This document shows, in pieces, positions 20,507 through 54,028 of a stretch of DNA of 58,734 nucleotides (positions within the stretch are counted from its first letter, which is position 1; each line of letters begins with the position of its first letter). The stretch is from the NCBI GenBank assembly GCA_019429055.1, contig JAHYJP010000003.1, positions 1 to 58,734 on the forward strand. Direction: 5' to 3'. Under the pieces are notes generated by a model. The model was not told the origin of the DNA. It saw only the letters and a list, made by a program, of their open reading frames with translations, and did no database searches. A program made the translations under genes and the position numbers. Source of the stretch: Bacteroidales bacterium. GTDB taxonomy: Bacteria > Bacteroidota > Bacteroidia > Bacteroidales > UBA7960.

Positions 20507-20584
20507 AAAAAGGTATATTTTGAATTTTATAATGCAAACCTACAATTTTTCGCTCTCTTATAAAAAATTATTCAAGTAGTTTAA

Positions 20585-20667: not shown

Positions 20668-20782
20668 ATATCGTTAATATTGCCTCAGTTGTTAATTGCA
20701 GGATGGGCACCTGAAGATTTCATCTGGATAAAATTAGTTTAAGTTATTGGTCAGATGGAACTTACATGAATGACCTTATCCA

Positions 20783-22234: not shown

Positions 22235-22248
22235 CTGGTAGAATTAAT

Positions 22249-23271
22249 TTATTTTTTTCCTGCAGGAATTATTCCCCTGTTCGCAAGATGTTCATAGGTC
22301 ATAAGAGCCAGAATACCCATTACTCCGGCAGCAAAAGCAGAGAGGAAAACAATAAGCCATCTGGTAGGGTATACTTTTTTTTCTGCAATAAACGCGTCAT
22401 CAATAAGAAATTTAAAAGAAACGAAGTTATCAAGGTCGGCTCTTGCTTCCTGCATTACACGCTGCACAACATGAAGATTTCGTGAGGTTTGTTCAAGATG
22501 TTCCTTTTGCGTCATAAAACTACCACCGTATTCCCTGATGACATCCAGCTGTTCTTCAATTGCCCTGACCCCTCTGGTATTGCCCGTAGAAAGGTCGATG
22601 GCAAGCTGTTGGGTAAGCATTTCTGCCTGTGCATTGTACTGGTATATACCAAGGCTCATGAGTGTGGTCAGTGAATCACGTGTTGTATTGATTTCGTGCA
22701 GCATATTCTCATAGCTTTGCCTGGCTACCTGGTAAGCAAGCAAAGCTCTTTGTTGTCTGATGTCATTTTGTATGGTATCGGCAAGTGCAGCAATTTCGTT
22801 GGCCATGTCAGCAGCCATTTCAGGGCTCTTATCACGAACTCTTATCTCTACAGCGCCATAAGGCGTGCGGCGGGATGAAATATTACTATTATAAATTTTC
22901 CGAAGCGTCGTATTTCTGTATTTATCATCTTCCTCAATTTCATAATGTTCAAAAAGATCAAAGCGTTCAACGACCTTGTCTCTTATGGCAGTTGATCCCA
23001 GGACCTGAAGCAATCGCTCAGCATCATCCACATCACCATATTCCAGAAAGTCTACGTTGGTGCCAAAGACTGCACGGCTCAAACTGCTTGATTTAGCCGG
23101 AAACATAAGCACTGTGGATTCGAAAAGCGGTGTAATAAAAATGGGTGAAGAAAAAATCACCCCCAGTATTGCTGCCGAAAAACCGATTATACCCAGATGT
23201 TTCCACCAGCGGATAAAAAACATGAAAATGTTTGTGGAATCAAATTCGTTGTTCACATTTTTGTCGTCCAT
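22249..23271 (-). CDS. Wzz-like polysaccharide chain-length determinant protein
   Basis: 340-aa ORF. TM helices at the N-terminus (LGIIGFSAAILGVIFS) and C-terminus (WLIVFLSAFAAGVMGILAL) flank a long helical periplasmic region. It is sandwiched between Wzy-type and Wzx-type genes. Confidence 0.6.
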   Translation of the reverse strand: MDDKNVNNEFDSTNIFMFFIRWWKHLGIIGFSAAILGVIFSSPIFITPLFESTVLMFPAKSSSLSRAVFGTNVDFLEYGDVDDAERLLQVLGSTAIRDKVVERFDLFEHYEIEEDDKYRNTTLRKIYNSNISSRRTPYGAVEIRVRDKSPEMAADMANEIAALADTIQNDIRQQRALLAYQVARQSYENMLHEINTTRDSLTTLMSLGIYQYNAQAEMLTQQLAIDLSTGNTRGVRAIEEQLDVIREYGGSFMTQKEHLEQTSRNLHVVQRVMQEARADLDNFVSFKFLIDDAFIAEKKVYPTRWLIVFLSAFAAGVMGILALMTYEHLANRGIIPAGKK

Positions 23272-40509: not shown

Positions 40510-41361
40510 ATGAAACCATTTCCGGGGGAAGAAATAAGCATTGGTATACTGGGATTAAGAAGACTTAACCATGTAACTTCAAGGCTGTATAATTTTGATC
40601 TCAGATCTTATGCAGCCACTTCTCTAATAAGAAAAATTGAAGCTGTAATTCAAAGAAATCATCTGAAAGATATTGATGCATTGATCCATTTGCTTGAAAC
40701 CAGGAGTTCGTTTTTCCCGGTTTTTCAAAGCCAGTTGTCCTATTCCTGTTCAGAATTATTCAGAGATCCTGCCTTCTGGAGAAGTTTTCGCGATGATGTT
40801 TTACCCGTTCTTAACAAAAACAATCAAAAAATCCGGATCTGGGTAGCAGGTTGTTCTTCAGGGGAAGAAGTCTTAAGTATTGCCATTATATTATACGAAG
40901 CAGGTTTGTATGAAAAAACTTCTGTACTTGTTACCGGCTTAAATGAATTAAGCATCAGTGAAACAAGAAGAAAAACCTACCAGGATAAACAACTGGAAAT
41001 TTCTGAAAGCAACTATAAAAGATTCTCCAGTAATGAAAATGCCCCAATTTCAAGGTATCTTAACAGAAAAGATAACCGATTTGTATTTAAAGATGAACTT
41101 TACAAAAATCTGAGATACGAAGTTTTCAACGGTTCAGAAACCAATGAAATTAAGGGTTTACACCTAGTTCTGTGCAGAAATTATTTCATATATTGCACCC
41201 CGGAATACCAGAATGAAATGCTGGGTCTGTTTACCGGAAGTTTATTACCGGGTGGTTTTCTTGCAATCGGAAATAAAGAGGATATCTCCTTTTGCGATGA
41301 TTTTAGCAGATATCTGGTATTCAACAAAAAGGAAAAGATTTTTCAGAAAAGGCCCTATTGA
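40510..41361 (+). CDS. CheR-family protein-glutamate O-methyltransferase
   Basis: 283-aa ORF. 'SELFRDPAFW' corresponds to the TxFFRD motif. 'IRIWVAGCSSGEEVLSIAIIL' is the SAM-binding motif and 'LVLCRNYFIYC' is the CRNVLIYF motif. Confidence 0.85.
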   Translation: MKPFPGEEISIGILGLRRLNHVTSRLYNFDLRSYAATSLIRKIEAVIQRNHLKDIDALIHLLETRSSFFPVFQSQLSYSCSELFRDPAFWRSFRDDVLPVLNKNNQKIRIWVAGCSSGEEVLSIAIILYEAGLYEKTSVLVTGLNELSISETRRKTYQDKQLEISESNYKRFSSNENAPISRYLNRKDNRFVFKDELYKNLRYEVFNGSETNEIKGLHLVLCRNYFIYCTPEYQNEMLGLFTGSLLPGGFLAIGNKEDISFCDDFSRYLVFNKKEKIFQKRPY

Positions 41362-41402
41362 AAGGGTTTTTAATTGTAGAAAAATATACCGGGGATGCTG
41401 TT

Positions 41403-41963
41403 ATGAACTACAGACTAGTAATAATCGGGGGTTCTGCAGGGAGTTTTCAGGTTGTGAATCAGATGCTTGCAAAGTTGCCTCAGGATTTTAAAATTCCGAT
41501 AGTTCTTGTTTTACACAGGCTTAAGCATGTAAGGCATGGATTTGTTGAGGCTCTTTCCCAGAAGTCTAATTTACCTGTTATTGAACCCGAAGATAAATCG
41601 AGCATCAGGCCAGGATATGTTTATCTTGCCCCTGCCAACTATCATCTGTTTATTGAAGTGAACGGCAGATTTGCCCTTTCTACTGAAGAGCCGGTAAACC
41701 ATTCAAGGCCTGCGATTGATTTATCATTTAAAACTGCAGCTTATTGTTTCAGAGAAAAGTTAATCGGAATAATTCTTTCCGGTGCCAATAAGGATGGGGC
41801 TTATGGCCTTAAAGCTATCAAACAAACCGGAGGATTAACTATTGTTCAGGATCCGATGGAAGCACAGATCCCTGTGATGCCCATGGCGGCGATTGAAAGA
41901 ACCGGGAAGGTTGACCATATTTTTCCGGTTAATGATATATTCAGTTTTTTATGCAAATTGTAA
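41403..41963 (+). CDS. CheB-type protein-glutamate methylesterase, catalytic domain only (no receiver)
   Basis: 'LVIIGGSAGSFQ' (nucleophile Ser), 'PIVLVLHR' (His) and 'LSGANKDGAYGL' (Asp) follow the spacing of the CheB catalytic triad. The ORF track opens at TTG 41358, which would overlap the cheR stop by 4 nt. I prefer the ATG at 41403. Confidence 0.85.
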   Translation: MNYRLVIIGGSAGSFQVVNQMLAKLPQDFKIPIVLVLHRLKHVRHGFVEALSQKSNLPVIEPEDKSSIRPGYVYLAPANYHLFIEVNGRFALSTEEPVNHSRPAIDLSFKTAAYCFREKLIGIILSGANKDGAYGLKAIKQTGGLTIVQDPMEAQIPVMPMAAIERTGKVDHIFPVNDIFSFLCKL

Positions 41964-42024
41964 ACACATTTAATTATATATATAATTCTATTCAAAACAT
42001 AAAAACATTAATACCACCAAAACT

Positions 42025-42867
42025 GTGAGGTATACCAAAATTTATATTTATTTCGGATTGAAACTTTTTCTGCTGGCTATGGGATGGATCATTTTTTACC
42101 AGCTTAAATTAATGAAATATTATACTGAGTTTGTAGATTTTCCTGAGCAGGTTTATCCTTCTTTTAATCGTGTTATTATTTCAATCAGCATCCTGCTAAT
42201 CATAAGTTTTTTGATATTAACTGTATTGACATGGAAGGAGTTTATAAGGTTAAATGCAAAAAATACCATTTCAGCAGATCAGAAGTGCGGTTCCGATTCA
42301 TTAAAGTCTCATAAAGAAAAACCTTCAACAAAAGCCAATGACCAAACCAGCGAGGAATCAGTAAAAAATATTTATGAAGTCAAAAGACAAAAACTTATAA
42401 GTTGCATTGAAAAAGATGTTACCAGTTATTCGGGAAATTCTGAAAAGATTATTGGGAAAAAGATATTAAGCTGTATATCTAAGGTATACGAGCTTACGCA
42501 GGCTGAAATATTTCTTAAAGCCGGCAATGCTGAAAAAAAGACCACATTCAGGTTATTGGCTGCCTTTGCAATTCCTGTATGCGATAATGATCCGGCAGAG
42601 TTTGATTTGGGTGAAGGGTTGATTGGACAGGTTGCACAGTACGGCAAACATCATTACATTGACGAACTTCCTGAAGGTTATTTGAATGTCCGGTCAGGTC
42701 TGGGTCAGTCTGATCCCGGCTGTTTGCTGATCTTTCCCTGGAAAGATCGAAAAGGAAAAACTTTTGCAGTCGTTGAGCTGGCATCATTCAGGCCTTTCAG
42801 CCAACAGGATATTAAATTACTGGAAAGCATTTCCGAAAATCTCATCCCGTTATTTAACCTGGATTAA
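42025..42867 (+). CDS. Membrane-anchored GAF-domain protein
   Basis: 280-aa ORF with a GTG start. It has two N-terminal TM helices and a low-complexity linker. The C-terminal GAF domain 'GEGLIGQVAQYGKHHYIDELPEGYLNVRSGLG...CLLIFPW' is paralogous to the GAF domain of the next gene. Confidence 0.7.
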   Translation: MRYTKIYIYFGLKLFLLAMGWIIFYQLKLMKYYTEFVDFPEQVYPSFNRVIISISILLIISFLILTVLTWKEFIRLNAKNTISADQKCGSDSLKSHKEKPSTKANDQTSEESVKNIYEVKRQKLISCIEKDVTSYSGNSEKIIGKKILSCISKVYELTQAEIFLKAGNAEKKTTFRLLAAFAIPVCDNDPAEFDLGEGLIGQVAQYGKHHYIDELPEGYLNVRSGLGQSDPGCLLIFPWKDRKGKTFAVVELASFRPFSQQDIKLLESISENLIPLFNLD

Positions 42868-42976
42868 TCCTGCGAAAAATGCGTAAAACACAGGGATTTT
42901 CATGTTCTTTAAAAGCTATTTTTGTCTCTGTAGGTAAAACATATAGAAATGACGGTATTATTCCTTTGTTAAAACA

Positions 42977-45592
42977 ATGAATTTGAGACATATAGTCCAT
43001 CAGGAAATCATTAGTAAAAGACAGTTTGTTCTGTATTCTTTTTTTGCAGGACTTTTTTTTCTTTTACTTACATGGGCATTGGAATCAGGAAGACAGGGAC
43101 TGGGATTTAATCTGTCATCCATACGATTCATTCACTTACAGAATCCCTTGCTCATTGTGATTGTGCTGCTGCCGGTTTCTTTGGCAGTATTATCCTGGAT
43201 TTTTTACAATTACCTGGAAAGCAGGCAAAAACTTATTAATGAGTTAAAGCAGAAACTCATAATCACGGAACAAAATACACATGACATTGCCTTGTTTGCC
43301 GGGCATATTACAAACGGGAATTATGATGTAGAGTTTGATGTTGCTGATGAGTCCGATAATCTGGCATATACTCTGCTAAACCTGAGAGATAAGCTAAAGC
43401 AAAACAATGAAAAAGAATCTCTGCAAAACTGGGAGATGACCGGAAAGGATAAAATCAGCCAGATTTTGCGGATGCATACTGATCTGAATGATCTTTCTTA
43501 CGAAGTGCTGGAGGCTTTAATCCGTTATATGGGCATTTTGCAGGGTATTTTTTACATCTACGATGAAGATGTTTCCAGGCTCAGAATTTCAGCAACCTTT
43601 GCCTATAACCGCAGAAAGTTCTTACAAGCTGAAATTTCAATTGGTGAAGGACTTGTGGGTCAGGCTGCCATTGAAAGAGACATCATTTACCGTACCGAAA
43701 TACCGGAAAATTATGTTAGCATCAGTTCCGGATTAATTGGCGATAAAAAACCTCATAGTTTACTCATTGTGCCGATGTTTATGGAAGAAAAGCTTCAGGG
43801 TGCTTTTGAATTTGCTTCTGTAAAAGAATTTAAAACTCATGAAATAGCATTCATCAAATCTATAGCTGAAATTGTAGCCCGCACAGTTTTCAATCTTAAA
43901 ATCACTGAAAAGACAGAAAAACTGCTCTACGAGGCACAAACCATGACAGAGGAATTGCGGCAGAATGAAGAACAACTGCGGCAGAATGCCGAGGAAATGA
44001 TTGTAACCCAGGAGGAACTCGAAAAAGCCAATGCACACCTTGAGGAGAAGATCCAGGAAGTAAATCAGAGCCAGAAAAGGCTTTACTCGCTGCTTGAGAA
44101 TGCTTCAGAGCTGATCTTCATCTATGATCAAAACAAAAAACTGAAATATGTCAGCCCCTCGTCCCGAAATATCCTGGGCTATTCGGAAGAAGAGATGTTT
44201 GAAGAGAAAGATATGGGTCAGATTTCTGAGAACGGCAAAAGCATAATTGATCAGATGTTTGATGATCTGTTAAGGTTTCCTGGAAAATCGCAAACTATAC
44301 AGTATAGCTTCAGACATAAGAACGGGTCAACAATTTTTCTGGAAACCACCGGCCGTAATCTTTTATATGACAATGCCATAAATGGCCTGATTCTCAATAC
44401 CAGCGACATCACCGAAAGGAAAAGAGCTGAAAAGGAACAAAGAATGAGGGGGCAAATGCAAACCCTTTCCGACAACTCTCCTGATATCATCCTTAGAATT
44501 GATACTCAAAAAAATCTGTTTTATGCAAATCCGGCACTTGAAGCCTACACCGGTATAAAAGCGGAGGAAATACTCAAAAAACAAATAACTAAAACAGAGC
44601 TTCCCAGTGACCTTACCGGTGCTATTAATAAAATTGCAGATAAAGTTTGTAAAACCAGGAAAAAAATACATCAGGAAATTACATTCATGGCCACTTCTGA
44701 TAAAAAAATAATGAGCCTGAATGCTATTCCCGAATGCGGTGAGGATAACCATCTTGAAACCATATTGTTTATACTTCATGATATCAGTGAGTTAAAGGAG
44801 ATCCAGGAAGAGATAAAGCATAAGAACGCCAAAATAACCGACAGTATAAACTATGCTTTTCGTCTGCAAAATGCAATTATGCCCAGCCAGCGATTAATGA
44901 AGGAATGCTTCCCTGATTCGTTTATGTATTATCTGCCACGCGATATTGTAAGCGGAGATTTTCCCTGGCTGTATAAAAAAGATGAGTTTATTTATATTGC
45001 TGCTGTTGATTGTACAGGTCATGGTGTGCCGGGTGCCATGCTGTCGCTCATTGGCTATTTTACCCTCAACCAGATTGTAAGCCGGACTGATAATCTGAGT
45101 CCTGATGAAATTCTGCATGAAATGCATGAGGGGGTTAAGCAAACACTACGTCAGAATATGGAAGGTGCGAGTGCCAGGGACGGAATGGACATAGCATTAT
45201 GTAAAATTGATACCAAAAACAGGAAGCTGGAGTTTTCCGGAGCTCACAGGCCCCTTTATCATGTTCATGATGGCGCTTTATATGAATACAAAGGCACAAG
45301 ATCAGCAATAGGTGGAATTTCCATGCCGGGCAAACCTGAACCTGATTTTAAAAACTACAGTATTGATATTTCAGAAAATGATTTAATATACCTTTTTTCC
45401 GATGGACTGCCTGATCAGTTTGGCGGACCACACGGTACCAAATATTTACCAAAAAGAATTAAGGAGATTGTTGTTGAGAATAATGCTTTACCCATGCATA
45501 AGATCTATGACATTTTCAATAATGACTTTAAAAAATGGCTCGGAAAAGGAAACCAGATTGATGATGTTTTGCTCATAGGAATCCGCTTATGA
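42977..45592 (+). CDS. Membrane sensor PP2C (SpoIIE/RsbU/SiaA-like) Ser/Thr phosphatase: 2TM, HAMP-like, GAF, coiled coil, PAS, PAS, PP2C
   Basis: 871-aa ORF. It has TM helices at about aa 15-40 and 55-80. The GAF domain reads 'GEGLVGQAAIERDIIYRTEIPENYVSISSGL'. PAS regions surround 'LYSLLENASELIFIYD' and 'TLSDNSPDIILRID'. The PP2C metal-site motifs are 'DIVSGDFPW', 'AAVDCTGHGVPGAMLS', 'FSDGLPDQ' and 'DDVLLIGIRL'. Confidence 0.9.
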   Translation: MNLRHIVHQEIISKRQFVLYSFFAGLFFLLLTWALESGRQGLGFNLSSIRFIHLQNPLLIVIVLLPVSLAVLSWIFYNYLESRQKLINELKQKLIITEQNTHDIALFAGHITNGNYDVEFDVADESDNLAYTLLNLRDKLKQNNEKESLQNWEMTGKDKISQILRMHTDLNDLSYEVLEALIRYMGILQGIFYIYDEDVSRLRISATFAYNRRKFLQAEISIGEGLVGQAAIERDIIYRTEIPENYVSISSGLIGDKKPHSLLIVPMFMEEKLQGAFEFASVKEFKTHEIAFIKSIAEIVARTVFNLKITEKTEKLLYEAQTMTEELRQNEEQLRQNAEEMIVTQEELEKANAHLEEKIQEVNQSQKRLYSLLENASELIFIYDQNKKLKYVSPSSRNILGYSEEEMFEEKDMGQISENGKSIIDQMFDDLLRFPGKSQTIQYSFRHKNGSTIFLETTGRNLLYDNAINGLILNTSDITERKRAEKEQRMRGQMQTLSDNSPDIILRIDTQKNLFYANPALEAYTGIKAEEILKKQITKTELPSDLTGAINKIADKVCKTRKKIHQEITFMATSDKKIMSLNAIPECGEDNHLETILFILHDISELKEIQEEIKHKNAKITDSINYAFRLQNAIMPSQRLMKECFPDSFMYYLPRDIVSGDFPWLYKKDEFIYIAAVDCTGHGVPGAMLSLIGYFTLNQIVSRTDNLSPDEILHEMHEGVKQTLRQNMEGASARDGMDIALCKIDTKNRKLEFSGAHRPLYHVHDGALYEYKGTRSAIGGISMPGKPEPDFKNYSIDISENDLIYLFSDGLPDQFGGPHGTKYLPKRIKEIVVENNALPMHKIYDIFNNDFKKWLGKGNQIDDVLLIGIRL

Positions 45593-45650
45593 TCAGACTA
45601 TCAGGTTAAGATATAAAAAAAATAATCATAACTAATTGTAAATAATAGAG

Positions 45651-46244
45651 ATGGAAAAATTTGATTACAAAGAACTTGTTTACAGTTTCCATAAGGAAAT
45701 GCTGGCCAATAATTTCACACTGGTTTACGAGGGTGAAATAACGCATCAGATCACCAAAGCCTTTACTTCGCTTACCGAAAATAAGATGGATAGTTACAGC
45801 GAGGATGCAAACATGAAAAAGAAAGTATTTCACGTGATGGTAGAATGTTTGCAAAACTTAAGTAAACATGCGGAGGATATCAGAATTTTAAAAGATAAGG
45901 GTTACTCCGGAAGTGGAATTTTTATCATTGGCAGAGTGGGGCCTGATAACGAAGACTATCATGTTCTTACCGGAAATTTAATAGAAAATTCCAGGGTTCC
46001 TGAACTTACAGAATTTCTGGATAAAATAAACAATCTGGATAAAAATGGCCTGAAGGAACTTTATAAAAAGCAAATGCGCGAAGCTACACTCTCAGAAAAG
46101 GGTGGTGCAGGGCTTGGACTGATAGATATTGCAAGGAAAACCGGAGAGAAGCTCGATTACAACTTTATTGAGATTGATGAAAAAAAATCATTTTACACCT
46201 TGAGGACCAAAATTTCAAGAAAACACCAAAGCAATAATATATAA
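45651..46244 (+). CDS. SiaB-like anti-sigma-type (HATPase_c fold) protein Ser/Thr kinase
   Basis: 197-aa ORF. 'VFHVMVECLQNLSKH' resembles an N-box and 'EKGGAGLGLIDIARKTG' is a G2-box. Its size and position, between a PP2C gene and a DUF1987 gene, match the SiaB arrangement. Confidence 0.7.
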   Translation: MEKFDYKELVYSFHKEMLANNFTLVYEGEITHQITKAFTSLTENKMDSYSEDANMKKKVFHVMVECLQNLSKHAEDIRILKDKGYSGSGIFIIGRVGPDNEDYHVLTGNLIENSRVPELTEFLDKINNLDKNGLKELYKKQMREATLSEKGGAGLGLIDIARKTGEKLDYNFIEIDEKKSFYTLRTKISRKHQSNNI

Positions 46245-46249
46245 CTGAA

Positions 46250-46624
46250 ATGGAAGTAATAAAAATAAGAGGGACTGAGGATACCCCTGATGTGTTTATA
46301 GATGCTAAAAACGGGGTTTTCGAGTTTTCAGGAAGATCATTGCCTGAAGATGTTCTGAGTTTTTATGCAACGATTTTACAAACAATTGAAGAATATATCC
46401 AGAGGCCTAATCCACGTTCTGAAGTGATATTCAGGCTCGATTATTTTAATACAGCATCATCCAAAATGATTCTCGATATTTTGATATATTTTGAACACCT
46501 TTCAAAGGAAGGACACGAAGTACTGGTGAAATGGTTTTATCATGCAGATGATGAGGACATGGAAGAAGCCGGTGAAGAATATTTTGAGATTGTAGATATA
46601 CCTTACGAAATGCATAGCTACTAA
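46250..46624 (+). CDS. DUF1987 (SiaC-like) partner-switch target protein
   Basis: 124-aa ORF starting 5 nt after the kinase gene. 'IRGTEDTPDVFIDAKNGVFEFSGRSLPEDVLSFY' and 'LDYFNTASSKMILDIL' match my recollection of the DUF1987 signature. The Thr codon ACA lies at 46451-46453 (residue 68). Confidence 0.75.
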   Translation: MEVIKIRGTEDTPDVFIDAKNGVFEFSGRSLPEDVLSFYATILQTIEEYIQRPNPRSEVIFRLDYFNTASSKMILDILIYFEHLSKEGHEVLVKWFYHADDEDMEEAGEEYFEIVDIPYEMHSY

Positions 46625-46655: not shown

Positions 46656-49600
46656 ATGAGTGAAGAAATTCTCAAAGCCCTGATGCAACTCTTTGCCATC
46701 ATTGCAAGGCAGGATGTTGGTTTGTCATTGAGGGAAAGAGAATTTGTGGAAAGCTTTTTAAAGCAACAGCTCAGCGAAAGCTCCGTTAATGAATATTTAA
46801 AACTGTTTGATAGTTACATTTTACAGGAAGGAAAAACCAGGGAGGAAAATGATTCCGGAGAGGTGAAATTAACTTCGGTAAAAGACTCTGTAAAAATCCT
46901 GGGTATTGCAAAAAAAATCAATCGAACTCTTGCCCAGAAACAAAAGGTGGTAGTTCTGATCAGATTGCTGGAGCTGATTAATTCTGATCAGAATTTTACA
47001 CCACAAAGAATGGCAATTATCAACACCGTTTCTGAAGTATTTAATATAAGCAAACAGGAGTATAAGGCAATCTCGGGCTTTGTTATCAGGGAGGAATCTG
47101 AGGAACTCGATATCCCGGAGATACTCATTTCTCACTCGTATCCAAATCAAAATATAAACTCACATTTTATCCTGTCGCATCAACTTAGTGGCAGCATTAT
47201 CATCCTGAGGGTGCAAAGCGTTGATTTGTATTTTTTAAAATATACCGGCAACAGTGAATTGATGCTTAACGGACTACCTGTAAAATCAGGCCGGATATAT
47301 AATTTTGCAAATGGTTCAGTTCTTAAACAACCCATTGGCAAACCCATTTTTTACAGCGACATAGTCGCAAAATTTATTTCGGACACTGTAGAAACCAATA
47401 TTTTCTTTAGTGTCGAGAATGTAAGCCATATTTTTCCCAACGGCTGCATGGGGCTTGAAAAAATCAACATCAGCGAAATTTCGGGTAAAATGGTGGCAAT
47501 TATGGGCAACAGCGGATCCGGAAAAACTACTTTGCTGAATGTTCTTTCGGGGTCAGAGAACCCATCGCATGGAAAAGTAAATATCAACACCATAAATGTA
47601 CACTCCGACAAAGAAAAAATAAAAGGGGTAATTGGTTATATTCCCCAGGATGACCTGCTGATTGAAGAGCTCACTGTTTATGAAAATCTCTTTTACAGCA
47701 CCATGCTGGTATTCAGAGATCATTCAACACTACAGATCACCGAAAAGGTTGATAAAATGCTTACCAGTCTGGGGTTATACCAAATAAGGAATCTGAAAGT
47801 AGGCAACCCCATGAATAAAAAGATCAGCGGAGGCCAGCGCAAAAGACTCAACATCGGACTTGAACTTATTCGCGAACCTTCAGTACTTTTTGTGGATGAA
47901 CCCACATCTGGTCTTTCTTCGCGCGATTCTGAAAATGTAATGGAATTGCTGAGGGAGCTTACAGTAAGGGGAAAACTCATTTTTGTTGTAATTCACCAGC
48001 CTTCATCTGAAATCTTTAAAATGTTTGATAAGGTAGTTATTCTTGATGATGGTGGTGTGCAAATCTACTATGGTAATCCTGTGGAGGCTGCTATCTACTT
48101 TAAAAAAATTGATAACCAGATCAACAGCGATGTGGGCGAATGCCCCAAATGCGGTAATGTTACTCCTGAAGCCATCTTTAACATCATTGAATCTCAAATT
48201 GTTGATGAGTATGGCAAAACAACAGGCTTGAGAAAAGTACAGCCTAAGGAGTGGGCAAGGTATTTTGAAAATTTTTACAAGCCGGAAAAAGAACTGCAAA
48301 AGAAAACAGACCTGCCCGCCACGTATATGAAACAAGGCTGGTGGAGGCAGTTAAATATCTATTTCAGACGCGATATCAGTTCCAAACTTGCCAACAGGCA
48401 ATACATCCTTCTGAATTTACTTGAGGCCCCGGTTTTGGCATTTTTGCTGGCCTATATTATCAGGTATATCGACGATCCGGCATCTGGTGTTTATATTTTC
48501 AGAGAGAATGCCAACATAATGCCCTACCTGTTTATGTGTACGATTGTGGCACTGTTTACAGGCTTGATTGTTAGTGCCGAGGAAATTTTCAAAGACCGGA
48601 AAATACTCAAACGCGAATCGTTCCTGAACCTCAGCAGAAGCAGCTATCTGATCTCTAAAATCAATATTCTTTTTCTCATTTCAGCCATTCAGGCAATATT
48701 GTTTATATGGGTTGGTAACAGTGTGCTGGGCATCAAAGGGATGTACTTTGAGTACTGGCTGGTATTCTTTTCATTAGCTGCCCTGGCCAATGTAATCGGG
48801 CTCAATATTTCATCTGCATTCAATTCAGCAGTTACAATTTATATCATTATTCCCTTTTTAATTATACCTCAAATGGTGCTTACCGGGGCCATGTTCAGTT
48901 TCGACAGGATCAACTTTAACCTCGGGGGTGGACGTGAAAAGGTTCCTGTTATTGCCGAAATAATGCCATCCCGTTGGGCTTTTGAAGCACTTGCTGTAAA
49001 TCAGTTTATGAATAATGATTATGAAAAACACTTTTATGATATGCGAAAGCTTGAGAGTGCTTTCAATTTTAAAAATGTGTATTACATTCCGGAGTTAAAA
49101 GGATACGTTGAATCATATAAATCGAGAGTTATTGCAGGAGATGATGACCCTTTAAAAAAAGCTGACATTCTTCTTCTCCACAATGAAATATTAAAGGAAA
49201 ATAGTTCATTTTATGCTGACCATCATCAGATAATATTCGAAGATGTAAGCAGCATAAGTCCGGAAAATTTTAATTTGAATACGGCTGATGCAATTCTTTT
49301 TTACCTTGAAAAACTGGAAAGTTTTTACAGTGAAAACTTTAACAGGGTCAACTCCATTATCGACAGGCAAATTTCTGAAATGGTGAGCACCCCTGAGAAA
49401 AGGAAGGAGTACCAGCAATGGTATGATGAAAATTATAACTCGCCCCTTGCGGCATTCGTTAAAAATACATACGCTCCCCTACCCCTTGTAAGGCTCGGAA
49501 ATAAACTTGTTCAAAAGATAGACCCGGTATATCTCGACCCTTCTGACAGGCGTTTGCTCAGTTTCAGGTCGCATTTCCTGGCACCGAATAAAAACATTGC

Positions 49601-49835
49601 AGGAAGATTGGTCCCTACCTTCTACCTGAATATTACCATACTATGGTTTTTCACATTAATAGCATATCTGGCCTTGTATTTCGATATTCTCAAAAAGCTT
49701 CTTTTGTTTTTTGAAAGAAATTCCGGCAATAGTAAATCATCATTAAATGAAAATGAAAAGAATCCCATAGGAAAAAAGCTGTTTTACAAGGACCTGGAAG
49801 ATGAAAGGATTTTATCGAACACAAATTTCAATTGA
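46656..49835 (+). CDS. ABCG-type ABC transporter, fused ATPase and ABC-2 permease, with extra N-terminal modules
   Basis: 1059-aa ORF. It has Walker A 'GNSGSGKTTLLNVLSG', the signature plus Walker B 'ISGGQRKRLNIGLELIREPSVLFVDEPTSGLSS' and the H-loop 'VVIHQPS'. These are followed by about 6 TM helices and a C-terminal extension with one more TM. About 270 aa precede the ATPase: a helical TerB-like segment (aa 1-150) and a beta-rich FHA-like segment (aa 170-250). Both of those assignments are low confidence. Confidence 0.85.
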   Translation: MSEEILKALMQLFAIIARQDVGLSLREREFVESFLKQQLSESSVNEYLKLFDSYILQEGKTREENDSGEVKLTSVKDSVKILGIAKKINRTLAQKQKVVVLIRLLELINSDQNFTPQRMAIINTVSEVFNISKQEYKAISGFVIREESEELDIPEILISHSYPNQNINSHFILSHQLSGSIIILRVQSVDLYFLKYTGNSELMLNGLPVKSGRIYNFANGSVLKQPIGKPIFYSDIVAKFISDTVETNIFFSVENVSHIFPNGCMGLEKINISEISGKMVAIMGNSGSGKTTLLNVLSGSENPSHGKVNINTINVHSDKEKIKGVIGYIPQDDLLIEELTVYENLFYSTMLVFRDHSTLQITEKVDKMLTSLGLYQIRNLKVGNPMNKKISGGQRKRLNIGLELIREPSVLFVDEPTSGLSSRDSENVMELLRELTVRGKLIFVVIHQPSSEIFKMFDKVVILDDGGVQIYYGNPVEAAIYFKKIDNQINSDVGECPKCGNVTPEAIFNIIESQIVDEYGKTTGLRKVQPKEWARYFENFYKPEKELQKKTDLPATYMKQGWWRQLNIYFRRDISSKLANRQYILLNLLEAPVLAFLLAYIIRYIDDPASGVYIFRENANIMPYLFMCTIVALFTGLIVSAEEIFKDRKILKRESFLNLSRSSYLISKINILFLISAIQAILFIWVGNSVLGIKGMYFEYWLVFFSLAALANVIGLNISSAFNSAVTIYIIIPFLIIPQMVLTGAMFSFDRINFNLGGGREKVPVIAEIMPSRWAFEALAVNQFMNNDYEKHFYDMRKLESAFNFKNVYYIPELKGYVESYKSRVIAGDDDPLKKADILLLHNEILKENSSFYADHHQIIFEDVSSISPENFNLNTADAILFYLEKLESFYSENFNRVNSIIDRQISEMVSTPEKRKEYQQWYDENYNSPLAAFVKNTYAPLPLVRLGNKLVQKIDPVYLDPSDRRLLSFRSHFLAPNKNIAGRLVPTFYLNITILWFFTLIAYLALYFDILKKLLLFFERNSGNSKSSLNENEKNPIGKKLFYKDLEDERILSNTNFN

Positions 49836-49934: not shown

Positions 49935-50843
49935 ATGAAAAAACAAAAAACAATACTGGTAATCTTGTTACTTATCCTGGGGCAATTTATGTCAGGGTGT
50001 CAGCAAGGTCAAAGGCAGGAAGCATCAGATTTGCTCTCCGATTCTTTCAGTGAAGGTGATTTAAGGCTCAACAATGCCATGATTGCCGAAGTTATTTCTT
50101 CCGTGCCTAACCCGGTTGAAATTACCTCAATTCTCCAGAAATCCGGAGTTGTTTATTCGCAGGATCTATTAAACCCTGCAGGTAATATAAGTAATTACAA
50201 TACCAACTTTCAGCGTGCACTCAATATTGGAGTTTACGGCACTGACCTGATATATATGAACATATATGATCGTACCGTTGCAACTTTAAGATACCTAAGC
50301 AATATCAGGGAACTGGCCGGTGATCTGAGAGTAGAACAATTCTTTGATTATGCAACATTAAACAGACTATCAGAAAGCAGTAAAAATGTTGATTCTGTTT
50401 TATTTATCACCAATACAGGTTTTGATAAAATGTCGAGATACCTGATTGACCAGGGAAGAAGCAATATTGCCGTACTTATTTCTGCAGGTACCTGGATTGA
50501 AAGCCTTTACATTGCTGCACATGCACAAACTACTGAAGCCAACAGAGAAACTATTAATAAAAGAATAGGTGAGCAGAAAAAAGTACTTGATAACCTGCTT
50601 TTGTTAATGAATTTTTATGGCGCAGATTCCGGTCTGGATGAACTCATTGAAGACCTTATGACAGTTAAAAAAGAATTTGATAATGTAACCATTACCTATC
50701 AATACGCCGAACCATCCATAAGAGAATCTGACGGTATGCTTGTAGTTGTTGACAATTCAAGAAGCAAAGTAGATATCAGCGACGAAACAGTCAGAAATAT
50801 TGCTAATGCCATAGCGGTTGTTCGTAATAAAATTATTGAATGA
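49935..50843 (+). CDS. Hypothetical lipoprotein
   Basis: From ATG 49935 (MKKQKTILVILLLILGQFMSGC), which gives a lipobox. The rest is predicted to be mostly helical. I recognise no family. The ORF-track start at 49902 is a TTG. Confidence 0.55.
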   Translation: MKKQKTILVILLLILGQFMSGCQQGQRQEASDLLSDSFSEGDLRLNNAMIAEVISSVPNPVEITSILQKSGVVYSQDLLNPAGNISNYNTNFQRALNIGVYGTDLIYMNIYDRTVATLRYLSNIRELAGDLRVEQFFDYATLNRLSESSKNVDSVLFITNTGFDKMSRYLIDQGRSNIAVLISAGTWIESLYIAAHAQTTEANRETINKRIGEQKKVLDNLLLLMNFYGADSGLDELIEDLMTVKKEFDNVTITYQYAEPSIRESDGMLVVVDNSRSKVDISDETVRNIANAIAVVRNKIIE

Positions 50844-50923
50844 AACGAAACCGAGCTGATAATTGAATGACTATGCCTTATTTAACACTGAAAAGAATTG
50901 TAAAACACCAAAAACGATTTAAA

Positions 50924-51364
50924 ATGAAAAAATATATTTTACTTTTTAGTTTGATTTTCCTTGTATTGTCTGTCAATAAGAGTTACTCGCAATGCGGAGA
51001 TGCCCTCCTGCAAATATGCCACAGCAAACTGGAAGATGCAAGGTTTATAAAAAGCTGGCCCATACAACTTCCTTCAAGAGCCAGGGGAGAAACACTCCCA
51101 CAGGTAAGTTTTAAACTTCCTCTAACCAGCGGAAATACATACAAGATCTTTGCCTGCAATGCATCTGAATACCAGGGTAAGGTAATTGTGAGTATCCGAA
51201 ACCAGAATGACGACCTGGTGGTTACATCTTATGTGGTTGAACAGAACAGGCATATTCCTGTGATTTTGTTTCCTGTTTCCATGAGCGGAATCTACACTTT
51301 CAGCTTCTACTTTGAGGATGGGAAAGAAGGTTGCGCCGTTGGAGTTGTATCAATTGCCGATTAG
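50924..51364 (+). CDS. Hypothetical small secreted Cys-containing protein
   Basis: From ATG 50924 (MKKYILLFSLIFLVLSVNKSYSQ), which gives a signal peptide. The mature part is about 125 aa, beta-rich, with 4 Cys. I recognise no family. Confidence 0.5.
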   Translation: MKKYILLFSLIFLVLSVNKSYSQCGDALLQICHSKLEDARFIKSWPIQLPSRARGETLPQVSFKLPLTSGNTYKIFACNASEYQGKVIVSIRNQNDDLVVTSYVVEQNRHIPVILFPVSMSGIYTFSFYFEDGKEGCAVGVVSIAD

Positions 51365-51482: not shown

Positions 51483-51875
51483 ATGAATACCAGCAAGAAA
51501 AAGCAAATATTTGTAATTGAAGACAACAAAACCGAAGGTATGTTGCTTAAACTTTGTTTGGGGTCAGTTAAGAATGTATCAGTTACTAATTATAGCTATG
51601 GTGAAGAACTTCTGAAAAACCTTGACAAGCATCCGGAAATAGTAATTGCCGATATGATGCTTCCTGATATTGCAGGCGAAGAACTTATCCATGCAATCAA
51701 GGAAAACAGTCCGCAAACAGAGGTTATTGTGGTTTCCTCCCAGAAAGATGTTGATCTGATAGCGAGGGTTCAGGAAATGGGTATATACAATTACCTGGTA
51801 AAGAGCGAAACCTGCATGGAATTGCTTCAGAAGGCCATAGAAGATCTCACCTTTCTTATAGATAACAGACGATAA
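51483..51875 (+). CDS. Stand-alone response-regulator receiver protein
   Basis: 130-aa ORF. It has 'IFVIEDN', the phospho-acceptor context 'VIADMMLPDIAG', 'VIVVSS' and 'YNYLVKS' (conserved Lys). There is no output domain. Confidence 0.85.
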   Translation: MNTSKKKQIFVIEDNKTEGMLLKLCLGSVKNVSVTNYSYGEELLKNLDKHPEIVIADMMLPDIAGEELIHAIKENSPQTEVIVVSSQKDVDLIARVQEMGIYNYLVKSETCMELLQKAIEDLTFLIDNRR

Positions 51876-51894: not shown

Positions 51895-51922
51895 AACGGG
51901 CTTTGCAAAGCCCGTTTTTTTA
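51895..51922 (+). terminator. Rho-independent terminator
   Basis: The stem pairs aacgggcttt (51895-51904) with aaagcccgtt (51907-51916) and is followed by T7. By eye, this is the first strong GC hairpin plus T-run downstream of 40510. Confidence 0.7.
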
Positions 51923-52179: not shown

Positions 52180-52617
52180 ATGAATAAAAATGTAACCATT
52201 ATTATTGCCGAGGATGATGAAGGACATGCTTTTCTCATCAAAAGAAATCTCAGCAAATCGGGTTTAATTAACCCTATCATTCATTTTAAGGATGGAGACG
52301 AAGTTCTTAATTTTTTCAAACAGATCAGCAAAGGAGAACTTGCAGATCCTGGCAAAGGATATATTGTTTTGCTGGATATTAAGATGCCAAAGGTTGATGG
52401 TACGGAGGTGCTTGAAAAAATGAAATCGGATCAGGTGCTGAGAAAAATTCCCATCATAATGATAACTACTACCGATGCACCTGCCGAAGTTGAACTTTGT
52501 CATAAACTGGGCTGTAACAGTTATATCGTGAAACCTATCGATTATGAAAAATTCATTGATGTAGTTAAGAGACTGGGTTATTTTCTTGAAATAGTAGAAA
52601 TTCCAAATGCAGGTTAA
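52180..52617 (+). CDS. Stand-alone response-regulator receiver protein
   Basis: 145-aa ORF. It has 'IIIAEDDEGH', 'IVLLDIKMPKVDG', 'IIMITTT' and 'NSYIVKP'. There is no output domain. Confidence 0.9.
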   Translation: MNKNVTIIIAEDDEGHAFLIKRNLSKSGLINPIIHFKDGDEVLNFFKQISKGELADPGKGYIVLLDIKMPKVDGTEVLEKMKSDQVLRKIPIIMITTTDAPAEVELCHKLGCNSYIVKPIDYEKFIDVVKRLGYFLEIVEIPNAG

Positions 52618-52620
52618 AAC

Positions 52621-53877
52621 ATGGCAAAAACCAGGAAAGCGAAGTCGGAAACGGGGCAAAAAAACCTGATTCCTGTATGGATTATTGAAGATGACCAGTA
52701 TCTTAATGGTATTATTAAACGAACTCTCCAAAAGCAGGGATTTAATTGTATTTCATTTCTGAGTGCAAAAGAAACATCCGATCACATCAATACATTTCCT
52801 GGAGGCAAGATAAATGCAATCATGCTTATTGACTACCTGCTTGGAGAAAGTGATGCAGTTAAACTGCTGAATGAAATAAATGAACTTGGGTATTCTATCC
52901 CGTTTGTTGTAATGACAGGTCAGGGCAGCCAGAAGACAGCCGTTGAGCTTATGAAATTGGGTGCGATGGACTATGTCATTAAAGAAGATGATTTCGTTGA
53001 CCAGATTGTTAGAAGCCTGATGCATGTTACAGAAAAAATTGCTGTTAACCGGAAGCTTGAAGAATCAAAAAAGAAATTAAAATCGAATGCCGAAAAACTC
53101 AAAGCTCTCAACGATGAAATCATAATGCAGAAAATCCTCGTTGAGAATGAAAAGGCCAAAACAGACAAGTTGCTGCAAAGTATTTTGCCATTGAAAATTG
53201 CCAATGAGCTTCTTGATAAAGGTTATACAAAACCCAGGGAGTACGATTCAGTTTCTATTCTTTTTGCTGATGTGATTGGGTTTTCTGACCTGGCTAAAAG
53301 CAGTCCGGCTATTGAACTGGTTACCCGTCTCGATAATTACTTTTACATTTTTGATGAGATAATAGAGCAATTCGGATTGGAAAAAATTAAAACCATCGGT
53401 GATTGTTATATGTGTGCGGGTGGCATACCTGAAGAAAATAATCATAATGCTGTTATTGCTGTAATAGTAGGATTGAAAATACAGGCAACTACTCTTAGTT
53501 TGCTCGATGAGAACGATGAAAGCCTCCCCAGTTTCAGGCTGAGGCTGGGTATTCATAGCGGGCCGGTGGTAGCAGGCGTTGTAGGTAAAAATAAATTCGT
53601 TTATGATATTTGGGGAGACGCCGTAAATATTGCAAGCAGGATTGTTGAAGCCAGCGAAAGAGACAAAGTGAATATTTCCGAAGAGACATATAAGCTGGTA
53701 AAAAAGTATTTTATTTTCTCTGAAAGAGGCGAAATCATTACCAAAAGGAATTATCCCATAAAGATGTATTTTGTTGAGCGGTTAAAACCTGAGTATTCTG
53801 CTGATGATGAAGGTTTATCGCCCAGTAAAAAATTACTTAAAGAACTCAACATTAACCAGGGTGTAAAATACTATTAA
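52621..53877 (+). CDS. Response regulator fused to a class III adenylate cyclase
   Basis: 418-aa ORF starting 3 nt after the previous stop. The receiver motifs are 'VWIIEDDQ', 'IMLIDYLLG', 'VVMTGQG' and 'KLGAMDYVIK'. A coiled coil follows. The cyclase motifs are 'VSILFADVIGFS', 'KIKTIGDCYMCAGG', 'LRLGIHSGPVVAGVVG' and 'YDIWGDAVNIASR'. Confidence 0.9.
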   Translation: MAKTRKAKSETGQKNLIPVWIIEDDQYLNGIIKRTLQKQGFNCISFLSAKETSDHINTFPGGKINAIMLIDYLLGESDAVKLLNEINELGYSIPFVVMTGQGSQKTAVELMKLGAMDYVIKEDDFVDQIVRSLMHVTEKIAVNRKLEESKKKLKSNAEKLKALNDEIIMQKILVENEKAKTDKLLQSILPLKIANELLDKGYTKPREYDSVSILFADVIGFSDLAKSSPAIELVTRLDNYFYIFDEIIEQFGLEKIKTIGDCYMCAGGIPEENNHNAVIAVIVGLKIQATTLSLLDENDESLPSFRLRLGIHSGPVVAGVVGKNKFVYDIWGDAVNIASRIVEASERDKVNISEETYKLVKKYFIFSERGEIITKRNYPIKMYFVERLKPEYSADDEGLSPSKKLLKELNINQGVKYY

Positions 53878-53929
53878 ACCATTCGCAAAACCTCATTCTT
53901 TTAAAATCTGCAAATTGCCTACTTATGAT

Positions 53930-53937
53930 TATATTTG
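53930..53937 (+). promoter_or_regulatory. Candidate -7 promoter box (TATATTTG)
   Basis: A TAnnTTTG match 91 nt upstream of ATG 54029. Confidence 0.35.
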
Positions 53938-54028
53938 CTGTTAATTGGTTGTCAGGTAGTTCTTATTACCTAACTTTATATGCTAATTTTAAAGTATAAC
54001 AAGGAATTTACCAAGAATTAAACCCGTT

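Follow-up and report, generated by a model that had tools for sequence, protein, structure and literature searches.

A chemotaxis-type CheR/CheB pair is encoded at this locus beside a PP2C/SiaB/SiaC partner switch. The window, that is, the whole stretch of DNA analyzed (58,734 nucleotides), contains 59 ORFs of at least 110 amino acids (aa). MCPsignal, CheA, CheW, and GGDEF domains were found in none of the 47 ORFs scanned, in agreement with a sequence-only reading of this DNA that had noted no such genes; the other 12 mostly overlap annotated genes on the opposite strand. The six plus-strand ORFs described in that reading were recovered at the same coordinates, and its domain assignments were all upheld by Pfam/NCBIfam profile searches. 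The unit, however, comprises nine genes and not six: a TerB–ABC exporter and two exported proteins are conserved to an equal degree. Because the module contains no classical chemoreceptor, methylation-based adaptation here probably tunes a non-chemotaxis pathway.

Gene content and conservation of the operon

The nine genes (cheR, cheB, 2TM-GAF, GAF-PAS-PP2C, siaB, siaC, TerB-ABC exporter, lipoprotein, and small secreted protein) are tightly packed on the plus strand. The first gene, cheR (40510–41361), encodes a protein-glutamate O-methyltransferase of 283 aa (Pfam CheR, 2.1e-28; the CheR_N match is weak). Its nearest solved structure is that of B. subtilis CheR (5ftw), to which the conserved SAM-site motifs IWVAGCSSGEE and LCRNYFIY align. 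The cheB gene encodes a methylesterase/deamidase (CheB_methylest, 5.7e-51) in which the Pfam scan detected no REC domain, and kinase feedback is therefore not evident. The earlier reading had offered two starts for cheB. A TTG at 41358 would yield 201 aa and an overlap with cheR, which is disfavored by homologue lengths; the ATG at 41403 is likelier because the copy in a public collection has 186 aa and the homologues have 184–199 aa. With the ATG, cheB spans 41403–41963 (186 aa), and the gap to cheR is 41 nt. In an alignment to T. maritima CheB (3sft), Ser26, His53, and Asp146 (numbered from the TTG) fall in the GSSTGG, vqH, and GxDG motifs. With the SAM motifs and the Ser/His/Asp positions conserved, both enzymes look active.

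The third gene (42025–42867) encodes a small protein with two TM segments and a GAF domain at its C-terminus (GAF_2, 5.3e-8); this putative accessory sensor is retained at every orthologue locus, always between cheB and the PP2C gene. The fourth (42977–45592) encodes a sensor phosphatase of 871 aa with the order 2TM, helical region, GAF, signaling helix, PAS, PAS, and PP2C (Pfam matches to GAF_2, PAS families, and SpoIIE, the last at 1.3e-19). More than 100 full-length orthologues share at least 50% identity with it, and the PP2C metal motifs DxxGHG, DG, and DD are invariant in orthologues. The AF2 model of this protein has a mean pLDDT of 77. The NCBIfam SiaA model covers only its C-terminal part (171 bits; cut-off, 700); for both the SiaA and SiaC equivalog models, the scores are well under the cut-offs. 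The siaB gene (45651–46244) encodes a SiaB-family Ser/Thr kinase with a HATPase fold (NF038262, 2.6e-50, 170 bits with the cut-off at 85; DUF6272, 2.3e-41) that aligns to P. aeruginosa SiaB (6kko_A). Starting 5 nt past siaB, siaC (46250–46624) encodes a SiaC-family switch phosphoprotein (DUF1987; PF09345, 1.3e-36) that aligns to P. aeruginosa SiaC (6kko_C) and conserves the phosphosite motif YxNT(68)xS. In P. aeruginosa SiaC, T68 is the phosphorylation site (PMC8457831). siaB and siaC are present in 23/23 and 22/22 loci, respectively.

The seventh gene (46656–49835) encodes an ABCG-like exporter of 1059 aa, a fusion of a TerB domain, an ABC ATPase, and an ABC-2 membrane part (Pfam TerB, ABC_tran, and ABC2_membrane). 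It lies 3′ of siaC in 20 of 21 loci, and in L030, a locus without cheR and cheB, it is still linked to siaB, siaC, and both exported proteins. One of these, unk313 (49935–50843; alternative TTG start at 49902), is a conserved lipoprotein of unknown family with a lipobox (...MSGC) and without a Pfam or NCBIfam match; its 502 homologues are all named hypothetical, and its AF2 model is confident, with no fold match in the PDB. The other, unk165 (50867–51364), is a conserved small exported protein, also of unknown family (no Pfam or NCBIfam family match), with a signal-peptide-like N-terminus. They are present in 19 and 18 of 21 loci, respectively. Only the window and L003 carry a single-domain response regulator gene 3′ of unk165 (51483–51875 in the window; Response_reg, 6e-18), which forms a lineage-specific operon tail. 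The likely operon end is a terminator-like hairpin on the plus strand (51895–51916; a T run follows the 9-bp stem), which has the longest and most G+C-rich stem of the five plus-strand terminator-like sites listed between 39900 and 52700. The remaining four have 5-bp stems and all lie within coding sequence, so that the strongest site occurs only 3′ of the REC gene.

The sequence-only reading had proposed a neighborhood comparison for the linkage of cheR and cheB to the PP2C/SiaB/SiaC genes, and this linkage proved strongly conserved. In Bacteroidales and Cytophagales, 21 of the 22 loci with a PP2C orthologue have both genes immediately 5′ of it, with cheR directly upstream of cheB, whereas cheR or cheB occurs in none of the 47 loci of other PP2C relatives used as controls (Fisher 8e-17, for loci that are not phylogenetically independent). 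The module recurs in dozens of genomes with flanking genes that vary by lineage, which confirmed that the arrangement is more than chance; it is a conserved Bacteroidota signaling operon. Among the 120 closest CheB homologues, the two that were looked up (approximately 64% identity) both sit in the same module, and this CheB clade appears to be dedicated to it.

Candidate methyl-accepting helix

A candidate methyl-accepting segment with Glu pairs one heptad apart lies in the signaling helix of the sensor phosphatase (aa 318–365; 43928–44071, plus strand; YEAQTMTEELRQNEEQLRQNAEEMIVTQEELEKANAHLEEKIQEVNQS). The Glu-pair heptad helix between GAF and PAS (NEEELRQNAEEMRATQEEL) is nearly invariant. 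In its core (aa 313–352), 24 of 40 positions (60%) are invariant in 23 orthologues, compared with 26% over the whole protein, and the invariant positions include polar E, Q, N, and T. Specifically, E326, E331/E332, E339/E340, and E346/E347 are 97–100% conserved in more than 100 orthologues, and position 325 alternates between Q and E, as deamidation sites of chemoreceptors do. Deletions in the helix among orthologues are exact heptad multiples. The segment is predicted to be helical in the AF2 monomer, with low confidence precisely at residues 333–353. The classical MCP methylation site has the pattern Glu-Glu-X-X-Ala-Ser/Thr, which is matched by EEMRAT in the helix. Against methylation, the site in the window itself is EEMIVT, and the helix fits only half of the extended MCP consensus. 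Since the PAS1–PAS2 linker is as conserved as the candidate helix, conservation alone is not methylation-specific. The PP2C protein plausibly holds a methyl-accepting segment, and sequence and gene neighborhood suggest that this protein or the GAF protein may be methylated.

The helix signature (QEEEMRQNMEEMQATQEEM) is also found in output-less Cache/4HB_MCP-HAMP-GAF-helix-PAS proteins, here called X receptors. Their sensor modules (Cache, 4HB_MCP, and HAMP) are of the chemoreceptor type, no output domain was found in them, and neither they nor the PP2C sensor contain an MCPsignal domain. Some X receptors adjoin a cheR of their own, as those in the module do, or lie within CheW/CheD/CheB clusters. 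The signature also occurs in 108 database representatives. In an unbiased metagenome sample, cheR or cheB was directly adjacent to 11 of 80 signature genes, compared with 0 of 47 controls. Against the methylation reading, neither gene was nearby in 69 of the 80, nor in the two cases looked up individually; most signature-bearing genes are orphans.

Proposed mechanism and alternative explanations

We give roughly even chances to the explanation that CheR and the receiver-less CheB form an adaptation pair acting on the GAF-PAS sensors of the module itself and not on classical chemoreceptors. The pair would reversibly methylate the heptad-spaced Glu pairs on the signaling helix between GAF and PAS of the membrane PP2C, a helix that is also present in the related output-less receptors. 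The methylation level would bias the coiled-coil conformation and, through it, the activity of the fused PP2C, which would remove the phosphate from Thr68 of phosphorylated SiaC in opposition to the SiaB kinase. The phosphorylation state of SiaC would then control its binding to an effector. The module includes no diguanylate cyclase, and the best effector candidate is the TerB-ABC exporter immediately downstream with its two exported partner proteins. Synteny alone suggests the link between SiaC and this candidate output, for which no interaction domain was identified.

CheR and CheB might instead serve only X receptors, either adjacent to the module or orphans elsewhere in the genome; methylated X receptors would then control PP2C by heteromeric contacts, and the Glu-rich helix of PP2C would be a structural or dimerization element. 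We regard this as doubtful, although several loci speak for it. In L025, an exact 42-aa deletion takes the Glu-rich segment out of PP2C and cheR and cheB are intact, so the PP2C helix is not the sole substrate and perhaps not a substrate at all. The Glu pairs are degenerate in the PP2C helix of L015 and L019 and intact in the X receptors of these loci, many loci carry an extra cheR per X gene, and GAF-(helix-PAS)n proteins are the most frequent carriers of the signature. In L015 and L127, an X-type gene directly adjoins CheD and REC-CheB genes, where an MCP gene might be expected. However, cheR and cheB still adjoin the PP2C gene in the window, L003, L018, L021, L024, L026, and L027, which have no X gene within reach; the Glu pairs are almost invariant in the PP2C orthologues, and the X–PP2C interaction is itself an assumption of this explanation.

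That the two enzymes simply serve adaptation in conventional MCP arrays encoded elsewhere in the genome, with the operon position reflecting co-regulation or history, seems unlikely. They are genuine members of their families, and their motifs are intact. In L015, three CheW genes together with CheR, CheD, and REC-CheB genes directly adjoin the module on its upstream side, so some carriers own further Che-type genes; the earlier description "MCP-less" is supported only for the window and the module. No MCP gene was seen in the fetched parts of the L015 and L127 clusters, which hold a HisKA-type kinase and an X-type receptor instead of CheA and an MCP, and a search of 84 loci with the L015 proteins detected CheW/CheD homologues at only one of them. 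The synteny spanning two orders despite changing flanks, the apparently dedicated CheB clade, and the lack of MCPsignal, CheA, and CheW domains in the scanned ORFs also count against conventional arrays, as does the reported general lack of flagellar chemotaxis systems in Bacteroidota. It is quite improbable that the Glu-rich helix serves to dock another partner, for example SiaC, and that CheR and CheB modify SiaC, SiaB, the TerB domain, or the small GAF protein. The invariant polar surface of the helix implies recognition by some partner, and in P. aeruginosa the parallel coiled-coil stalk helices of SiaD carry conserved motifs to which SiaC binds (PMC8457831). The distribution of proteins with the helix signature is, however, much wider than that of the module, these proteins are often encoded on their own, and no Glu-pair or Glu-rich helix is evident by eye in the small GAF protein of the window. 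Moreover, CheR-family enzymes act on Glu residues in helical coiled coils, namely those of MCPs and RsbK.

Comparison with known systems

RsbM of B. cereus, which we take to be a member of the CheR family, is an orphan methyltransferase without an esterase, whereas the module here has a dedicated CheB (21/22 loci). RsbM was shown experimentally to methylate the post-GAF signaling helix of RsbK, a HAMP-GAF sensor that acts on the PP2C RsbY and, through it, on the RsbV/RsbW switch (PMC4574943). The sequence-only reading had known of no described example of such a coupling, and RsbM–RsbK upstream of a PP2C partner switch is a precedent (PMC4574943). In both systems, the methyltransferase shares an operon with a membrane sensor (sensor, HAMP, GAF, and signaling helix in RsbK) and the signal ends, here presumably, in a PP2C driving a kinase/antagonist partner switch. 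As a hybrid histidine kinase, RsbK acts by phosphorylating RsbY, a distinct REC-PP2C protein, whereas the sensor here is directly joined to PP2C in one protein, with neither a histidine kinase nor a REC step in the core module. The Rsb switch, from Firmicutes, consists of RsbV (STAS) and RsbW acting on a sigma factor, while the Bacteroidota module has SiaB/SiaC, no sigma factor, and an ABC exporter downstream. The paired esterase, the direct fusion of sensor and PP2C, the SiaB/SiaC-type switch, and the absence of a diguanylate cyclase are new.

The module resembles P. aeruginosa SiaABCD in its membrane PP2C (SiaA), SiaB-family kinase, and DUF1987 switch protein with Thr68, and in the gene order phosphatase, kinase, and switch protein. 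It differs in lacking the SiaD-type GGDEF cyclase, both in the module and in the scanned ORFs of the window; in its GAF-helix-PAS-PAS sensor part, only the C-terminal phosphatase region matching the SiaA model; and in its conserved downstream genes for the exporter and two exported proteins. CheR is not mentioned in one paper on the Sia system (PMC8457831).

With canonical MCP/CheR/CheB adaptation, including alternative-function pathways such as Wsp, the module shares a CheR methyltransferase and a CheB esterase/deamidase, putative targets in heptad-spaced Glu/Gln pairs on a transmembrane sensor coiled coil, receptor-like genes of which some cluster with the enzymes and others are scattered, and the co-occurrence of CheD and CheW in some loci. 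In contrast, no candidate substrate has an MCPsignal domain, no CheA was seen, CheB has no receiver domain, and the proposed output is a Ser/Thr phosphatase switch instead of CheA-to-CheY phosphotransfer. Sensors annotated as "chemotaxis family, CheB/CheR fusion protein", whose function we take to be uncharacterized, likewise have CheB and CheR domains that are not associated with an MCP. In L003, a gene for such a fusion follows the module at a distance of approximately 700 nt, read from a fetched part that stops before the C-terminus. The fusion protein carries a Glu-pair heptad repeat in the same phase (NEELQxT, five copies), which speaks for the candidate site in the PP2C helix; PAS domains follow. 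In this fusion, a single polypeptide combines the enzymes with the putative acceptor helix, whereas in the module they are encoded by separate genes and the candidate acceptor is linked to PP2C.

Gene content of the window module

An ORF check placed six consecutive genes on the + strand where the sequence-only reading had put them (40510–46624), and the HMM searches it had proposed supported the CheR, CheB, GAF, PAS, SpoIIE, and DUF1987 assignments. The cheR product (40510–41361, + strand) matches PF01739 with an E-value of 2e-28 (99.5 bits; cut-off 27), while CheR_N scores 23.6 bits, under the Pfam cut-off of 27. It aligns to the CheR structures 5ftw (B. subtilis) and 1af7, and the SAM-site motifs of 5ftw are kept, confirming the intact SAM motifs described earlier. 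The next gene, cheB (41358/41403–41963, + strand), encodes an esterase domain only (PF01339, 6e-51, 173 bits). Its Ser/His/Asp triad motif positions are conserved in an alignment with T. maritima CheB (3sft), and neither the Pfam scan nor homologue lengths indicated a receiver domain in the protein (186–201 aa), in agreement with its description as receiver-less. Of the TTG and ATG starts that had been offered, the one preferred here is the ATG at 41403, because the CheB copy in the public collection has 186 aa and the homologues have 184–199 aa.

The 2-TM GAF protein (42025–42867, + strand) was recognized by GAF_2, as expected. The 871-aa membrane sensor phosphatase (42977–45592, + strand; hereafter PP2C) matches GAF_2, PAS families for both PAS domains, and SpoIIE (71 bits), and the metal-binding Asp motifs noted in it are invariant across aligned orthologues. 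The SiaA equivalog NF038263 aligns only to the C-terminal part of PP2C, with a score of 171 bits where the cut-off is 700. The SiaB-like kinase (45651–46244, + strand) was verified as a SiaB-family member by NF038262 (170 bits, cut-off 85) and aligns to 6kko_A; the narrower SiaB equivalog gives 84 against a cut-off of 225. The DUF1987 protein, SiaC (46250–46624, + strand), likewise held up (PF09345, 1e-36, 125 bits), with a SiaC equivalog score of 80 against a cut-off of 150. Its NT68 phosphosite aligns with the NTS motif of P. aeruginosa SiaC (6kko_C). MCPsignal, CheA, CheW, and GGDEF domains were absent from the 47 scanned ORFs, among 59 ORFs of at least 110 aa in the window, which is consistent with the earlier statement that such genes are missing.

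Extent and conservation of the module

An exact look-up of the window PP2C gave no record, and homologues were used for the context analysis. Over 100 full-length orthologues of PP2C share at least 50% identity with it. The three orthologue contexts examined have a nine-gene block in common with differing flanking genes; thus, the six genes first recognized stand, but the conserved unit in the compared loci extends to nine. The order is cheR (sometimes in two copies), cheB, the 2TM-GAF gene, PP2C, siaB, siaC, a TerB-ABC (ABCG-like) fusion, a lipobox protein, and an exported protein, the last three being 1020–1060, ~300, and ~150 aa long, respectively, across the three contexts. The genes of the window module are packed in an operon-like manner.

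A scan at one genome per species gave 80 loci, which were annotated with profile HMMs made from the proteins of the window and counted only where the contig reaches the feature in question. The proposed linkage of cheRB to the PP2C/SiaB/SiaC genes was clear: cheR and cheB lie upstream of the PP2C orthologue in 21 of 22 loci, and neither occurs within 10 kb in any of 47 control loci holding only PP2C-domain relatives (Fisher 8e-17, a value that is not a true probability because the loci are related). The other components are present in 23/23 (siaB), 22/22 (siaC), 20/21 (TerB-ABC), 19/21 (lipoprotein, 313 aa, no family), and 18/21 (small exported protein, 165 aa, no family) reachable loci. Carriers in the Bacteroidales are MAGs (one labelled Rikenellaceae), Salinivirgaceae, Breznakibacter, and Saccharicrinis, and those in the Cytophagales are Chryseolinea lacunae, Flexithrix dorotheae, Cesiribacteraceae, Cyclobacteriaceae, Flammeovirgaceae, and Roseivirgaceae.

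In the N-terminal part of the exporter (window 46656–47435), a TerB domain comes first and is succeeded by ~110 conserved residues (aa 140–250). Pfam and PDB sequence and profile searches detected no family for this region, and an FHA-like phospho-Thr reader, considered as a candidate, was unsupported by the same searches. Behind the exporter, the conserved lipoprotein (49935–50843) and the conserved small secreted protein (50867–51364) were not assigned to any family. The AF2 model of the lipoprotein is confident (pLDDT 82.6) and mostly helical; used as a query, it retrieved no PDB match with E < 0.4. At locus L030, a different HAMP-PP2C, siaB, siaC, the exporter, and both family-less exported proteins occur together without cheRB. 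This synteny, L030 included, suggests that the exporter may be linked to the switch.

Downstream of the module, a terminator-like hairpin with a 9-bp stem (51895–51916, + strand) directly follows a single-domain REC gene. It is the strongest of the + strand sites listed; the other four have 5-bp stems and all lie within coding sequence. The REC gene follows the module only in the window and in L003, its closest sequenced relative. Beyond the hairpin, window 52180–56398 encodes a second single-domain REC, a REC protein with a class III adenylate/guanylate cyclase domain, and a PAS-HisKA-HATPase-REC-REC hybrid kinase. The cyclase and the hybrid kinase were considered as the module output and rejected as core parts, because they lie 3' of the hairpin and the other loci lack them. 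This region is a lineage-specific signalling cluster that is not conserved beside the module elsewhere.

Several loci carry variant switch genes. SiaB of L025 (12888–14030) consists of two tandem SiaB domains in one protein, and SiaB is about twice the usual length (366–394 aa) in L025, L018 (22266–23366), L031 (12292–13476), L062 (2655–3785), and L079 (15480–16625). In L065 (3006–14807) and L079 (5031–15102), four to five PP2C paralogues, each of ~710 aa, are arrayed in tandem, and a divergent siaC-siaB pair adjoins the array of L079.

Candidate methyl-accepting helix and related receptors

We propose that CheR and CheB would reversibly methylate Glu pairs in a signalling helix of PP2C, in separate receptors that share the helix signature, or in both. 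The methylation level would set the PP2C activity and through it the level of SiaC-P, and SiaC would in turn regulate the TerB-ABC exporter encoded in the module, together with the two exported proteins that partner it.

The PP2C helix lies between the GAF domain and the first PAS domain and is predicted at residues 287–335 and 346–374, with low confidence at 333–353 (monomer model). In its core, MT[Q/E]ELKENEEELRQNAEEMRxTQEELEKTN, a hydrophobic residue follows each Glu pair, every seven positions. Among 120 orthologues, E326, E331/332, E339/340, and E346/347 are 97–100% conserved, and position 325 is mostly Q (69%), with E in 13%. Invariant positions make up 24 of 40 in the helix core versus 26% over the whole PP2C, a conservation that is no specific evidence for methylation because the PAS1-PAS2 linker equals the helix in this respect. 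Cytophagales orthologues retain an LRQNAEEMxATQEEL core. The classical chemoreceptor methylation site has the pattern Glu-Glu-X-X-Ala-Ser/Thr, which is matched by EEMRAT in many PP2C orthologues; the site in the window PP2C is EEMIVT, and the N-terminal half of the extended MCP consensus is unmatched by the helix. In-frame deletions in the helix remove whole numbers of heptads (7 aa in L022:7897–10500 and 42 aa in L025:10393–12858), as expected of a register-sensitive coiled coil. In L003, a CheB-CheR-PAS_10-PAS fusion of more than 1190 aa (19018–22592) is encoded ~700 nt downstream of the module and, C-terminal to its CheR domain, repeats the heptad NEELQxT five times in phase. PF28175, listed for some orthologues, was a weak T4SS_LegC2C7 coiled-coil match and was set aside as uninformative. 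No published description of this helix signature was found in the literature searched.

At many loci, an extra cheR followed by a gene for a 630–950-aa protein, designated X, is located beside the module. X proteins combine a Cache-like or 4HB_MCP sensor with HAMP, GAF, the helix, and PAS-PAS, and the domain scan found neither an output domain nor MCPsignal in them. Their helix, QEEEMRQNMEEMQATQEE[ML], has the same signature as that of PP2C, with EEM/LxAT at the site.

The X-type receptors, instead of the PP2C helix, may be the real substrates of CheR/CheB. L025 keeps intact cheR and cheB though its PP2C lost the Glu-rich segment, and the Glu pairs of the PP2C helix are degenerate in L015 and L019, both of which favor such a role for the receptors. 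The single case of L020, in which loss of cheB coincides with degraded pairs (ADEM and QLEL), fits methylation of the PP2C helix itself. It could also be supposed that the enzymes serve conventional MCPs encoded elsewhere in the genome. This explanation is disfavored because the CheB clade appears to be dedicated to the module, the synteny is conserved, and CheW and CheD homologues were found in only 1 of 84 loci. All of the 120 closest CheB homologues are receiver-less, and the two that were sampled (~64% identity) both lie inside the same module.

A search of the 55-residue helix against 1.84 billion representative proteins returned 108 matches, almost all bearing the signature, often in 3–9 copies between PAS domains. 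Ten scanned matches are GAF-(helix-PAS)n proteins with no recognizable output domain and no MCPsignal (Pfam). Members of this family (L084:8001–10778 and L085:8001–11162; P0121–P0228) have 500–2100 aa, and many are stand-alone genes; the repeat is [AS]QEEE[ML]RQN[ML]EE[LM]xATQEE[ML] in 3–9 copies. Neither cheR nor cheB was found within 8 kb of two signature genes that were checked individually. Metagenomes were also scanned for the signature with an unbiased DNA pattern; of the 80 readable loci obtained, 11 have cheR or cheB directly adjacent to the signature gene, as compared with 0 of 47 control loci (Fisher 0.007). Strict co-occurrence of the signature with cheR was rejected because most signature genes are orphans. 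Like MCP genes, X-type genes are partly clustered and partly scattered.

Both L127 and L015 (Breznakibacter) have an X-type gene directly next to genes for CheD and REC-CheB, and their clusters include a HATPase-type kinase gene. The L015 cluster (72–6867), directly upstream of the PP2C module, encodes three CheW proteins, CheR, a soluble HisKA-type kinase core, CheD, REC-CheB, and an output-less GAF-(Glu-pair helix)-PAS receptor; the kinase is nearest to HK853-type histidine kinases, not CheA. In L127 (4664–10195), the kinase gene is truncated by the contig end and is accompanied by genes for CheD, REC-CheB, and the receptor, as well as by an additional gene of 360 aa. Neither an MCP nor CheA was found in the fetched parts of either cluster. 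Together with the cheR/cheB neighborhoods, these clusters indicate that X-type proteins accompany three receptor Glu/Gln-modifying enzymes.

Comparison with known systems and significance

By analogy, the module appears to combine adaptation of the chemoreceptor kind with a partner switch of the Sia type. It shares the CheR methyltransferase and the CheB esterase with its triad with canonical Che systems, in which, however, the CheB receiver is phosphorylated by CheA and the substrate is an MCP acting with CheA/CheW. Because no MCP, CheA, or CheW is encoded in the module and its CheB is receiver-less, it is not a canonical Che member; the candidate substrates scanned (X receptors and signature proteins) are without MCPsignal. 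In SiaABCD, SiaA dephosphorylates SiaC-P, SiaB phosphorylates SiaC, and unphosphorylated SiaC binds its target, with a described role for SiaC T68 (PMC8457831). The SiaB-family kinase and the DUF1987 protein with Thr68 are common to both systems, whereas the SiaD cyclase is co-encoded there and the TerB-ABC exporter follows siaC here. The lack of SiaD and the SiaA and SiaC equivalog scores far under cut-off place the module outside SiaABCD.

The nearest described analogue is the RsbK/M/Y system, whose RsbM we take to be a CheR-type methyltransferase. In B. cereus, RsbM methylates the post-GAF signalling helix of the non-MCP sensor RsbK and thereby controls a PP2C partner switch with RsbY (PMC4574943). 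The sequence-only reading knew of no described example of such coupling, for which this methylated sensor and PP2C switch provide a precedent (PMC4574943). As in the module, the methyltransferase is encoded with a sensor of GAF-then-signalling-helix architecture (PMC4574943), and X receptors contain HAMP as well. Signalling there runs from a hybrid histidine kinase through REC-PP2C to RsbV/RsbW and a sigma factor, whereas the module sensor is fused directly to PP2C. The core module contains no HisKA/HATPase histidine kinase, REC-PP2C, STAS protein, or sigma factor and is therefore not an RsbKMY member. No published account of cheR/cheB linked to SiaB/SiaC-type genes was found in the literature searched.

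CheR/CheB genes are common in Bacteroidota. To our knowledge, these bacteria either glide or do not move and in general have no MCP/CheA arrays, and we know of no explanation for the role of CheR/CheB in them. A tentative proposal, which we consider rather improbable as a whole, is that Bacteroidota own a methyl-accepting receptor class, membrane-bound or soluble, of (Cache/4HB-HAMP)-GAF-(Glu-pair helix-PAS)n architecture without the MCP signalling domain. Dedicated CheR/CheB (and CheD) would adapt these receptors, which would signal via PP2C/SiaB/SiaC, or in some clusters via a HisKA-type kinase with CheW, not via CheA, with an envelope ABC exporter as the output. If true, bacteria that lack flagellar chemotaxis would possess a sensory system that resembles chemotaxis and has a memory. 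Reversible glutamate methylation, if confirmed, would be a general adaptation device for Ser/Thr phosphatase switches, beyond CheA kinases, and a large GAF-PAS family now named “PAS domain S-box protein” would become methyl-accepting receptors. In the module, the candidate substrate is narrowed to a helix of 40 residues bearing four Glu pairs, phosphorylation of SiaC-Thr68 provides a defined readout, and the ABC exporter with the two exported proteins is a candidate for the physiological output. It is also a first conserved setting in which a SiaB/SiaC switch occurs without a diguanylate cyclase, and it pairs the switch with a putative non-Pseudomonas input.

An input cassette of a helix-bearing GAF protein, cheR, cheB, and a small GAF protein was also observed at L156 (2686–7198). 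There, a YfiR/HmsC-like DUF4154 protein, at which the stretch ends, follows the cassette in place of PP2C and may be a different output of the same input cassette.
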